A DNA stretch of 64,000 nucleotides, taken from contig CACLGU010000003.1 of the NCBI GenBank assembly GCA_902606505.1, positions 2,292-66,291 of the forward strand, in the 5' to 3' direction. Shown piece by piece: positions 14,201 to 16,591 of the stretch. Each line of letters opens with the position of its first letter. Within the stretch, counting starts at the first letter, position 1. The notes under the pieces were generated by a model. The model worked only from the letters and a program-made list of their open reading frames with translations, was not told where the DNA came from and did no database searches. The stretch comes from an uncultured Prochlorococcus sp. (lineage in GTDB: Bacteria > Cyanobacteriota > Cyanobacteriia > PCC-6307 > Cyanobiaceae). A program made the position numbers and the translations under genes.

Positions 14201-14214
14201 CACGGAGAGGGAGG
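14201..14214 (-). repeat. att core: displaced 3' fragment of tRNA-Ser
   Basis: Identical to 16501-16514 (T-stem 3' side, acceptor strand, discriminator and 2 further nt). Confidence 0.85.
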
Positions 14215-14230
14215 AGTTTAGAGTGAACTC

Positions 14231-14258
14231 ATATGGAAGCATATGGAACTATATGGAA
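14231..14258. repeat. Three 10-bp-phased ATATGGAA repeats
   Basis: ATATGGAA at 14231, 14241 and 14251. Confidence 0.85.
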
Positions 14259-14280
14259 GAATAAAAAATAAGAAAGTAGG

Positions 14281-14304
14281 ATTTCCTACCCTAAATCCTA
14301 CCCA
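14281..14304. repeat. Tandem arm-type motif pair, left end
   Basis: ATTTCCTACCCT (14281-14292) followed by AAATCCTACCCA (14293-14304). Confidence 0.8.
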
Positions 14305-14526
14305 GTTTGTTTTTACTGCAATTTAACATCTTAATTTAAATGGTTTGGGGATGTATTTGGATAATGGAGATTGGGTGGAATTAGGAGTTGATTAACCAAG
14401 GATTAAATATTTAATGCTATTGCTAAACTCCTGACTGACCATAAAAAATACATCGTTAACGGACAAGCAAACTTATGAATTTTTACCTATCAATATTCCC
14501 ACTAAGAAAGAAATCAAATAACTAAA

Positions 14527-14700
14527 TTATTTTTGTGATTTCTCTAATTTAGATATTCTCTTCTTTATTTTATCTAATTCATCTGAAACACTTTTATCAA
14601 TTTCACTTGAAATATTTGATTTTATTTTTTCAGATAATATTTCCTTGACCAAAGCATTTAATTTAATATTCTTCGAAAGAGCCATATATTTGAGATTTTT
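14527..14700 (-). pseudogene. 5'-truncated small helical protein, possibly a ribbon-helix-helix DNA-binding protein (52-aa ATG ORF at 14685..14527)
   Basis: KNLKYMALSKNIKLNALVKEILSE...ELDKIKKRISKLEKSQK*; frame is closed immediately upstream. Confidence 0.45.
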
Positions 14701-14898
14701 AAATTAGAATTTTTATCGGATGATGTTGCTATTTGTGTTTTTATTTTGAGATCTAGTTTTGTTTACAAAGACATTCAAAATAGCGACTTAGCTACAGTTA
14801 CTGCGATATTAAAGAAAATAAATAATCAATGGAAATTATCATGGATGCATAGATCATCTGGAGATGCAGACTTTTCGCTATGGGACTTATATCTGTAA
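14701..14898 (+). pseudogene. C-terminal half of a DUF3804-like (NTF2-fold) protein
   Basis: KLEFLSDDVAICVFILRSSFVYKDIQNSDLATVTAILKKINNQWKLSWMHRSSGDADFSLWD; no start codon upstream in frame. Family recognised from memory. Confidence 0.7.
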
Positions 14899-15025
14899 TT
14901 GTTATAAAAAGTATTAACCTAATTCAAAATATTCTTTTATCAACTTCAGTAAAAGAATAAATATTTTACTAGATAGCTATAAGACTAGAAAAATAGTAAA
15001 CTAAAAGCAAATTGATTTCTGATTC

Positions 15026-16273
15026 TTGAGAGTTCAAGAAAATATTCCTGAAAAATTTTTTGGATTACTTTCATTTAAAAGTAATTTAAAATTGCTTTTT
15101 ATTTTTAATGTTTTGATATCTGTTTTTATATTTGACCTCGTCAAGGCAGAAAGTGATAATTCGACTTTTGAGATTAAAGACGACATTCAAATTGACTATT
15201 TGAAGTCTAAAGAAGAGTTAAAAGATTACATGATCGATACTGGTGATATTTTATCCATTGATTTCAATTTTAAAATGTTTAATGGAAATTATAAAGTGAA
15301 CCCAGAAGGGGAAATACTTCTTCCAGAAATTTATGAAACTTATGTTCGAGGTTTAACGACATCTGAGCTGTCTGAATTATTAACTAAAAGATATTTTGAA
15401 TTCATGCACGATCCTGAGATAACAGTAAGAATTGCAAAGTTTAAGCCTTTGAGAGTATCAATTCAAGGTGAAGTTAGAAATCCAGGGATTTATGAATTTC
15501 CTAGTTACAGCTTAATGCCTACTTTGATGGATGAAAATAGTGAGGTATTTTCTCTAGAGAAAAAGGTTGTATCAACTAATAAGGTATTTTCTCAAGAGAA
15601 AAAGGTTGTATCAACTAATAATCGTGAAATTTCAAATAATATCAATATAAAAAATACTGATAAAATTACCTCCATCTCTAATGCAATTAGAAACGCCGGA
15701 GGAATAACTTCTAAAGCTGATTTGTCTCGCATCGAAATAATTAGAGATATACCTATTGGGAAAGGAGGTGGAAAAAAAAGAGCGGTTGTCGACTTTACTT
15801 CTTTTCTAAATGAAAATGATCCTACTAATGATATTAGATTATTTGATGGAGATAGAATATTTTTACCAAAGCTCGCATCTGCTTCTTCAGATATAATCCC
15901 AAAATCAATCCTAAGCGGTCTTTCTCCAAAATTGATAAAAGTAAATATTTTCGGTAGAGTCGAAAATCCTGGACCTGTAAGTTTACCTTTAGAAGCTTCA
16001 TTATCAGATGCGATAAATTTGACTGGACCGATAAAACCTCTATCAGGAAAAATTATTTTGATAAGGTACAATAAAGATGGAACAATTTTAAACAAAAATA
16101 TTTCTTATTCTGCTAGAGCAAAAAAAGGTTCGAGAAGAAATCCTTTTGTAAAAGAAGGAGATTTAATAACTGTTCAAAATAGTTTATTAGGAAAAAGTAC
16201 AGGAATTATTAAAGAATTTACATCACCATTTGTAGGAATTTATTCAACCAAAGAAATAATTGAAAGTTTTTAA
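15026..16273 (+). CDS. Wza/KpsD-like polysaccharide export protein (Poly_export + SLBB domains), orphan copy 1
   Basis: YMIDTGDILSI, VNPEGEILLPEI..YVRGLT, V..QGEVRNPG, AGGI..KAD, DIRLFDGD, GRVENPG; signal-like N-terminus and amphipathic C-terminus. Confidence 0.88.
   Translation: MRVQENIPEKFFGLLSFKSNLKLLFIFNVLISVFIFDLVKAESDNSTFEIKDDIQIDYLKSKEELKDYMIDTGDILSIDFNFKMFNGNYKVNPEGEILLPEIYETYVRGLTTSELSELLTKRYFEFMHDPEITVRIAKFKPLRVSIQGEVRNPGIYEFPSYSLMPTLMDENSEVFSLEKKVVSTNKVFSQEKKVVSTNNREISNNINIKNTDKITSISNAIRNAGGITSKADLSRIEIIRDIPIGKGGGKKRAVVDFTSFLNENDPTNDIRLFDGDRIFLPKLASASSDIIPKSILSGLSPKLIKVNIFGRVENPGPVSLPLEASLSDAINLTGPIKPLSGKIILIRYNKDGTILNKNISYSARAKKGSRRNPFVKEGDLITVQNSLLGKSTGIIKEFTSPFVGIYSTKEIIESF
15542..15619 (+). 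repeat. In-frame 39-bp tandem duplication
   Basis: 15542-15580 vs 15581-15619, 37/39 identical; EVFSLEKKVVSTN / KVFSQEKKVVSTN. Confidence 0.92.
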
Positions 16274-16341
16274 TTCATACTTTTTAGCCATATCTGTCGA
16301 GTGGTTTTGTCGTGATGCAGGCATACACTCCTACGACTGCA

Positions 16342-16387
16342 ATTTCCTACCCTCTACCAAATAATTTCCTACCCTATTTCCTACCCT
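16342..16387. repeat. Three arm-type ATTTCCTACCCT motifs, right end
   Basis: Exact copies at 16342, 16364 and 16376. Confidence 0.9.
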
Positions 16388-16502
16388 CCAAACATGAAAT
16401 TCTGTGATACTCTGTGAGTGTCTCTGATTTTCCTATTTCTGCAAAAGTATTAGTATCACTAGCTTCAGGAACATTATGAACTTCCATGCTCTACCAAAAA
16501 CA

Positions 16503-16591
16503 CGGAGAGGGAGGGATTCGAACCCTCGACAAAAGTTACCTCCTGTAACTCCTTAGCAGGGAGCCGCTTTCAACCACTCAGCCACCTCTCC
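16503..16591 (-). tRNA. tRNA-Ser(GCT)
   Basis: GGAGAGGTGGCTGAGTGGTTGAAAGCG..CT GCT AA..long variable arm..GGTTCGAATCCCTCCCTCTCCG. Confidence 0.97.

Follow-up and report, generated by a model that had tools for sequence, protein, structure and literature searches.

We examined a 64-kb window of Prochlorococcus DNA (the whole stretch that begins above, from contig C3 of the genome labeled G000 here) and found that a 2.3-kb stretch at the 3' end of its tRNA-Ser(GCT) gene is best read as foreign DNA inserted by a tyrosine integrase. The stretch carries a Wza-like polysaccharide export gene, and we propose that it is an integrase-less, helper-dependent member of an element family; we put the probability of this reading at roughly 0.6. 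Its origin from an element is well supported. Sequence comparisons also support a probable dependence on a helper integrase and the probable identity of that helper for tRNA-Ser.

The G000 assembly comprises 1.25 Mb in 69 contigs (76% complete, 33% G+C) and includes the CCB1 cytochrome b6f assembly gene and DUF3804; the genomes of its relatives are 1.6 to 1.8 Mb. We called domains with Pfam and tRNAs with ARAGORN, and we estimated chance levels for repeats from 100 shuffles of the window. Labels beginning with G denote genomes and those beginning with L denote loci or contigs; C54, C29, and C1 are other contigs of G000.

A 2.3-kb insertion at the 3' end of tRNA-Ser(GCT)

tRNA-Ser(GCT) lies on the minus strand at 16502-16592, as indicated by ARAGORN and by alignment with empty sites, and its 3' end (16501-16514) forms the core of the right attachment site (attR). 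An exact 14-bp duplicate of this 3' end, CACGGAGAGGGAGG, lies on the plus strand at 14201-14214 and forms the core of the left attachment site (attL). The repeat occurs exactly twice in the window, with zero copies expected by chance. When aligned with the empty sites of three relatives (L035, L037, and L051), the window matches the empty-site sequences up to the repeat from either side, and the insert borders fall exactly at the repeat. Positions 14215-16514, about 2.3 kb, are a true insertion at the tRNA-Ser(GCT) 3' end.

The flanking HAD-hydrolase gene is a core gene, found in 49 of 50 high-quality genomes. Of the 29 species genomes whose HAD genes are closest to that of the window, 14 have a precise empty tRNA-Ser site; these sites are scar-free, with the HAD stop codon followed by 35 nt and then by tRNA-Ser. 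Other genomes hold 0.25 to 10.7 kb of different DNA in the same interval, including carbamoyltransferase and SxtJ genes, a polysaccharide lyase, an arylsulfotransferase, or integrase-bearing elements. The site is one that turns over fast.

Both ends of the insert carry arms composed of short words. The left (P'-type) arm, at 14215-14312 on the plus strand, contains AGAGTGAAC (14220-14228), three 10-bp phased ATATGGAAG words (14230-14259), and then ATTTCCTACCCT and AAATCCTACCCA (14281-14304). The right (P-type) arm, at 16340-16500 on the plus strand, contains three copies of TTTCCTACCC (16343-16386), GTGATACTCTGTG (16404-16416), GTATCAC (16453-16459), and TATGAACTTCC (16476-16486). Near the left end there is one exact copy of TTTCCTACCC (14282), with the variant AAATCCTACCCA adjoining; the three copies near the right end start at 16343, 16365, and 16377, and the window holds no further exact copy.

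Inside the arms, a stretch at 14400-14458 (plus strand) is homologous to the integrase-Wza junction of integrase-bearing relatives, with 80 to 83% identity to L125 8369-8420 (G102) and to G201; in these genomes, its counterpart lies directly between the 3' end of the integrase and the region upstream of Wza. A small conserved open reading frame (ORF) of 52 aa, sORF52 (14527-14685, minus strand), has copies that are 75 to 90% identical in cassettes of G142, G026, G010, and G068 and has no Pfam or PHROG match. Next to it is a 5'-truncated DUF3804 gene (14746-14898, plus strand; PF12707, E = 2e-15) that covers profile positions 83-128, the last 46 of 128; the G068 cassette has a full-length copy of 133 aa. 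Searches of the insert for an integrase (Pfam, and relaxed tblastn with four integrases, excisionases, and resolvases) gave no credible match or remnant. The only long ORF is a 415-aa Wza-like outer-membrane polysaccharide export (OPX) gene (15026-16273, plus strand), which ends 228 nt from tRNA-Ser. A first-pass annotation of this DNA had claimed that the insert is bounded by a 14-bp tRNA-Ser duplication, has a 12-bp motif inside both ends, lacks an integrase, and has as its only long ORF a Wza-like gene ending near the tRNA (at 230 nt), and our results agree with it on all of these points.

The cassette ends match the attachment site of a circular element

We searched for the joined attachment site (attP), which is present only in an excised or tandem element, with the pattern TCCTACCC, 100-130 nt, ACGGAGAGGGAG, 10-35 nt, TATGGAA. 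The pattern matched in four marine metagenome contigs, with zero matches in 185,579 species genomes and zero in IMG/VR contigs. Each of the four encodes an integrase that shares 71% identity with that of G102, and none includes chromosomal flanks. The TCCTACCC arm dyad by itself gave 91 matches in IMG/VR, none with the tRNA-Ser core, and we judged these to be chance matches.

One of the contigs, L157, is 6521 bp long (34% G+C) and has identical 123-bp ends, and L156, from a separate assembly, reads through the L157 end junction. The terminal overlap and the spanning contig indicate a circular topology of ~6.4 kb or, less likely, a tandem arrangement. The L157 gene set includes a resolvase, an AlpA excisionase, and an integrase. 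In its attP, the right arm of the window (attR) aligns on one side of the core and the left arm (attL) on the other. The left-arm blocks are kept in L157 and in eight other cassettes, and the right-arm blocks are largely kept in L157 and in other cassettes; the words and several other blocks are largely kept, and several are invariant; the spacers have diverged. By this alignment, the two ends of the cassette are shown to correspond to the two halves of the attP of an integrase-bearing element (right arm, 12- to 14-bp core, left arm).

Arm words vary with integrase lineage

Integrase-bearing elements are present at tRNA-Ser(GCT) in G032, G052, G089, G028, G036, G056, G215, G223, and G102. They start with a common layout: a copy of the 12- to 14-bp core, a AGAGTGAAC-like block, three ~10-bp phased words, a spacer, and two tandem 11- to 12-bp words. 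Downstream of this arm lie an AlpA-type excisionase, a tyrosine integrase with an arm-DNA-binding domain, and often then a small serine recombinase. The arm words, which include TCCTACCC, TCCTCCCC, and CCCAACAACA, vary by integrase lineage. The tandem word is ATTTCCTACCCT in the G102 lineage, ATTTCCTCCCCT in that of G215, ATTTCCCCCACC in that of G056, TCCCAACAACA in that of G052, G089, G032, and G028, and TTCGCCACACC in that of G036. The arms of the window cassette carry the G102-lineage word, ATTTCCTACCCT. This covariation supports a simple code at tRNA-Ser, in which arm words would go with integrase lineages.

Allowing one mismatch, we found the TCCTACCC dyad in 15 of 285 genus genomes, almost always as a left-right pair at the tRNA-Ser locus, and a reversed-pattern control gave two single matches. 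Nine of the 285 genomes have a member of the whole Ser(GCT) integrase family (at least 40% identity), and G102 is the only one of the 15 dyad-bearing genomes in which the matching integrase is intact. The G102 element is a 4.7-kb unit between 12-bp repeats and consists of a TCCTACCC left arm, xis, an integrase with an Arm-DNA-binding domain, a Wza gene, and a resolvase. Its left end is 83% identical to the left arm of the window, and its Wza protein (415 aa) is 57% identical to that of the window. Compared with G102, three genes are missing from the window unit (xis, integrase, and resolvase), and the sORF52/DUF3804 module is a gain. The Wza gene of G201 adjoins a truncated integrase, of which only the last 104 residues of the G102 type are left, and in G223 a cassette is accreted in tandem with a different integrase-bearing element. 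None of the related elements that we examined contains conjugation genes. No replication gene was recognized in relatives of the G102 and L157 type, in which AlpA excisionase and resolvase are present.

A second cassette at tRNA-Cys(GCA)

The second docking site in the window, tRNA-Cys(GCA), lies at 62693-62763 on the plus strand (ARAGORN). A Wza-like paralog with Poly_export and SLBB domains (62970-64000, minus strand) ends 206 nt from it; its C-terminal 342 aa are present, and the contig stops short of the N-terminus. The tRNA-proximal arm between them contains three copies of GTGGACAGCAA (62850-62882, plus strand; 0.5 expected by chance). The first-pass annotation had described this paralog and the tandem motif, and the layout holds; its estimate by eye of 70% identity to the tRNA-Ser copy holds for the DNA (70%) and not for the protein (62%).

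The far end of this cassette is on contig C54 of G000, where a 22-bp copy of the tRNA 3' end lies at ~706-727 of L136. Occupied tRNA-Cys sites have Wza between the tRNA and such a copy of ~22 bp. GACAGCAA dyads lie inside both ends of the tRNA-Cys cassettes of G003, G010, and G026 and are also found on C54. Among 124 genomes with a completeness of 85% or more, nine have the dyad, eight of them beside Wza at tRNA-Cys; the ninth match (G147, one mismatch) looks like chance. The tRNA-Cys site is precisely empty in 22 of the 29 closest genomes, which have the tRNA, about 365 nt, and then a 214-aa core gene. Fixation of both paralogs at their loci had been named beforehand as an outcome that would speak against mobility; with empty sites in 14 of 29 genomes at tRNA-Ser and in these 22 at tRNA-Cys, neither paralog is fixed. 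Other small cassettes use the tRNA-Cys site too. By its layout, the copy at tRNA-Cys is a cassette of the same type as that at tRNA-Ser, with a 22-bp core and GACAGCAA arm words, and its excised form would have the junction order GACAGCAA dyad, GTTCGAATCTGGGTGCCGCCTT, GACAGCAA dyad.

The part of the cassette on C54 (L136) has two small ORFs, at 5-238 (minus) and 373-528 (plus), with one weak Arc-like repressor match in PHROGs. We also compared sORF52 with a 77-aa ORF of the tRNA-Cys cassette and found that the two are not similar.

Cargo and divergence of the cassettes

Arms of the window type enclose different cargo in different genomes. G049 has a long two-domain Wza alone; G142, G026, and G010 have sORF52, DUF3804, and a long Wza; G068 has sORF52 and DUF3804 without Wza; and G027 has about 1 kb in which we recognized no known cargo gene. 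In some genomes, the arms enclose a short Wza. The identity of a cassette to that of the window does not follow the identity of its flank: the HAD gene is 76% identical in G010 and 97% identical in G049, and cassette parts are 80 to 93% and 83 to 94% identical, respectively. On these values, cassette divergence is decoupled from flank divergence.

Cassette presence is unclustered on a tree of the adjacent HAD gene, requiring 11 changes for 12 carriers, as many as with shuffled labels. Three different site states occur within a single well-supported clade whose HAD alleles are nearly identical. In the Wza protein tree, site labels need 13 changes compared to a minimum of 4. Both gene trees agree with the mobility suggested by the first-pass annotation. 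In the latter tree, tRNA-Cys genes nest among tRNA-Ser genes, and integrase-linked copies nest among copies located between trmD and ispF. This topology points to a shuffling of Wza alleles among at least four chromosomal slots (tRNA-Ser, tRNA-Cys, near tRNA-Asn, and trmD-ispF).

The Wza-like gene and its slots

The window Wza has Poly_export, SLBB, and SLBB_2 domains (PF02563, 4e-14; PF10531, 3e-14; PF22461, 4e-10), and its Poly_export part matches E. coli Wza (2J58) with E = 4e-7. Alignment of the family shows conservation except in a low-complexity, hypervariable linker that joins Poly_export to the first SLBB domain; in this linker, the window allele has an in-frame 39-nt tandem duplication (15543-15621, 97% match). 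Some alleles have two Poly_export domains and are 574 to 704 aa long. As read from the alignment, the N-terminal hydrophobic segment of the window protein ends in ...DLVKAES and has no cysteine and no lipobox.

The first-pass annotation had called this gene an orphan, and locally it is: no wzc, wzb, or kps genes lie beside it, and neither a polysaccharide co-polymerase (Wzc/KpsE) nor a polymerase or transporter partner is encoded there. The claim is weaker at the genome scale, as Wzz-domain genes are present in four related genomes, either 50 to 350 kb away (G043, G163, and G117) or on another contig (G049). We found no Wzz-domain gene in G000, which is 76% complete. Given the missing lipobox, the lack of local partners, and other cargo at these slots that also concerns surface glycans, we infer that the cargo would either change surface-glycan export or serve as a surface-exposed target for phages or grazers.

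The Wza family has a match in 89 of 151 genus genomes, and no Wza homolog was found in 50,697 phage records. Among the best 29 homolog loci, 11 are at or near tRNA-Ser, tRNA-Cys, or tRNA-Asn, in line with the suggested enrichment of homologs at tRNA 3' ends, and another 11 are between trmD and ispF. The closest full-length relatives of the window Wza (63 to 65% identical) lie 1.5 to 1.8 kb downstream of tRNA-Asn(GTT) in G203 (C4, L130) and G070 (C4, L131). DUF7326 is present at both of these loci, and a methyltransferase is present in G070. We did not count them as clean cassettes, having found only a single 12-bp partial tRNA repeat.

The trmD-ispF interval is a further variable slot, with Wza in 11 genomes. 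In G000, this interval (L135, C1:3000-11000) holds an AT3-SGNH acyltransferase, SxtJ, and a carbamoyltransferase. The carbamoyltransferase-SxtJ pair is also present at tRNA-Ser(GCT) in G105, G127, G016, and G043 (L075, L077, L082, and L091), and its presence at both slots suggests that whole glycan-modification modules move between slots too. An ORF of ~400 aa follows the pair in G105, G127, and G043; the one from G105, the sole one tested, has a weak, below-cutoff GDSL-like match.

Neighboring genes

On the other side of tRNA-Ser, an alanine racemase gene is cut to its first ~50 codons (16635-16784, minus strand); relatives carry this gene between tRNA-Ser and an HNH gene, and a divergent alr (48% identical) is present on G000 contig C29 at 8060-9196 (L137). 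Several genomes have a second HAD-hydrolase copy ~59% identical to that of the window (e.g., G049:C205, G026:C119, and G140:C2). In G102 and G081, it is this divergent form that adjoins tRNA-Ser. The pattern may reflect a distant clade or mixed assemblies. Twelve kilobases from the cassette, between radical-SAM and beta-lactamase-like genes, the window encodes a 224-aa resolvase-domain (small serine recombinase) protein (1675-2349, plus strand) with weak similarity to the resolvase of the circular element.

A proposed helper-dependent cassette and its alternatives

Under the proposed mechanism, the cassette belongs to a family of elements that target tRNA-Ser(GCT) and carry an AlpA-type excisionase, an arm-binding tyrosine integrase, a small serine recombinase, and cargo. 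The cassette would be immobile alone and would be excised and reinserted only with a matching integrase and excisionase in the same cell. The helper could act in trans; it could also act in cis once it has inserted beside the cassette, as in G223. Without a helper, the cassette would stay put. A larger picture, which we offer tentatively and do not consider likely as it stands, is a two-tier exchange in which rare 5- to 6-kb xis-integrase-resolvase helper circles would serve about ten times more integrase-less cassettes, whose arm words would be addressed to helper lineages. Such a system would be a tRNA-anchored counterpart of integrons for surface genes, with Wza-like alleles swapped under phage or grazer pressure.

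Several results weigh against helper-dependent movement. The circular junctions anticipated by the first-pass annotation were found for the matching element family, in its attP-bearing metagenomic form, and not for the integrase-less cassette: no circle or junction of it was detected, and all four attP contigs carry an integrase. The idea that each cassette has its own arm specificity is supported at tRNA-Ser by the lineage-linked words. At tRNA-Cys, we found no integrase at the sites examined, and the attP-type pattern had zero matches in viral contigs and species genomes. The assembled 76% of G000 contains no cognate integrase, excisionase, or cognate remnant, and the truncation of DUF3804 indicates that some decay has occurred. 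The genomes searched were single representatives of each species, and resolution of the HAD tree is poor, with 29 of its 45 internal branches open. For the cargo protein, an AlphaFold2 model from a 20-sequence alignment had a mean pLDDT (predicted local distance difference test) of 42. As regards the C-terminal amphipathic helix that builds the outer-membrane pore of OPX proteins, the model has a short helix at residues 406-414 at low confidence only.

Some of these results would also be expected of a dead remnant, in which one or a few insertions of an integrase-bearing element were followed by loss of the integrase, and Wza, by then an ordinary chromosomal gene, was kept by selection and spread solely through descent and homologous recombination via the conserved flanks. 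We consider this possible, though improbable on balance. The lack of a cognate integrase in assembled G000, the truncated DUF3804 gene, and the finding of attP only together with an integrase all favor it; the integrase-less left part of the insert (positions 1-313), contiguous in G068, G009, and G246, fits a single loss followed by inheritance; and a preprint reports extensive recombination in the dominant HLII clade (bioRxiv 10.64898/2025.12.29.696893). A dead remnant is harder to reconcile with arms that both keep most of the blocks common to a live attP while their spacers diverge, with scar-free empty sites, and with cassette presence that is unlinked to the adjacent HAD allele. It also does not readily account for a single genome (G010) with a 76%-identical flank and 80 to 93%-identical cassette parts, or for the different cargo held by the same arms (long Wza, short Wza, DUF3804 only, or ~1 kb without recognized cargo).

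We think it quite unlikely that the Wza gene is host DNA that a transient element carried off when it excised imprecisely and then left behind at the tRNA. A model resembling specialized transduction has been proposed for island material by Hackl et al. (bioRxiv 10.1101/2020.12.28.424599), and the trmD-ispF interval, a non-tRNA home of Wza in 11 genomes, is a possible source; however, the cassette is equipped with two arms and two core copies of its own rather than a single end, and the G102 Wza is internal to its element, between integrase and resolvase. Least probable, to the point of being nearly negligible, is an ancestral chromosomal gene lost many times without any mobile element, with repeats that arose by chance or are related to the tRNA. 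The wide distribution of the Wza family (89 of 151 genus genomes) is in its favor, yet it is already contradicted by the exact empty sites, by a 14-bp repeat that is beyond chance, and by insert ends that match the halves of a circular attP; integrase-bearing versions also occupy the same site.

Relation to known systems

The Ser(GCT) elements resemble tycheposons (Hackl et al.) in gene set and behavior, and the link that we propose between them is one of resemblance. Both integrate site-specifically at a tRNA 3' end with partial tRNA copies (14 bp for Ser; 22 bp for Cys on C54), and the integrase-bearing relatives of the window cassette are, like tycheposons, rare and transient, encode an excisionase and a small serine recombinase, and have a tyrosine integrase that faces inward. 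The stacking of elements in tandem at one tRNA, niche-suited cargo, and circular forms in ocean metagenomes are further similarities. Unlike tycheposons, the window cassette has no integrase or other mobility or replication hallmark gene, although its relatives G102 and L157 encode an integrase. Tycheposons are listed at seven tRNAs (Pro-tgg, Ser-tga, Ala-ggc, Thr-ggt, Arg-tct, Met-cat, and tmRNA; bioRxiv 10.1101/2020.12.28.424599), and Ser(GCT) and Cys(GCA) are not among them. In addition, the core here is 12 to 14 bp compared to the ~40 nt described as typical, the slots are mini-slots of 0 to 11 kb rather than large islands, and the cargo gene serves surface export, not nutrient uptake or phage interference.

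The cassette also resembles the cis-mobilizable elements (CIMEs) of streptococcal integrative and conjugative or mobilizable elements, which are defined by the absence of integration genes and the retention of attL and attR (PMC5704250); they derive from such an element, and conjugation mobilizes them once accretion has taken place. The window unit is without integration and transfer genes and retains attL and attR, as its block-by-block match to the L157 attP indicates, and G223 provides a case in which an incoming integrase-bearing element has accreted in tandem. It differs in that no relative that we examined has conjugation machinery, the helpers are 5- to 6-kb xis-integrase-resolvase elements, and the host is a streamlined marine cyanobacterium. 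Like integron cassettes and integrase-less attC clusters, these are small, mostly one-gene, promoter-poor units without a recombinase, exchanged at a fixed chromosomal site; unlike them, they have no attC hairpin and no IntI but lambda-type attachment sites (core and arm repeats) at a tRNA and lambda-type integrases, and each tRNA cassette carries both arms. The encoded protein shares with E. coli Wza (OPX; PDB 2J58) the order of a Poly_export (PES) domain followed by SLBB domains, and it differs in having no lipobox cysteine, no adjoining wzc, wzb, or kps, and a hypervariable low-complexity linker.

Significance

To our knowledge, Prochlorococcus-type cells are without plasmids, prophages, and conjugation, and the integrase-bearing elements known to date account for just a few percent of their island material. 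The tRNA-Ser locus could provide a concrete, testable route for island DNA: small cassettes with complete attachment sites, movable by a rare helper. The helper attP and integrase for tRNA-Ser are now known as sequence, and two tRNA docking sites, Ser(GCT) and Cys(GCA), are added beyond the published list. The match between the cassette and a rare circular, integrase-bearing seawater element suggests how streamlined cells may swap surface genes. The gene traded among at least four slots is a surface export gene, in a clade reported to have lost most exopolysaccharide machinery (PMC4594306), and this points to cell-surface variation, e.g., in recognition by phages or grazers, as the trait that is being exchanged.

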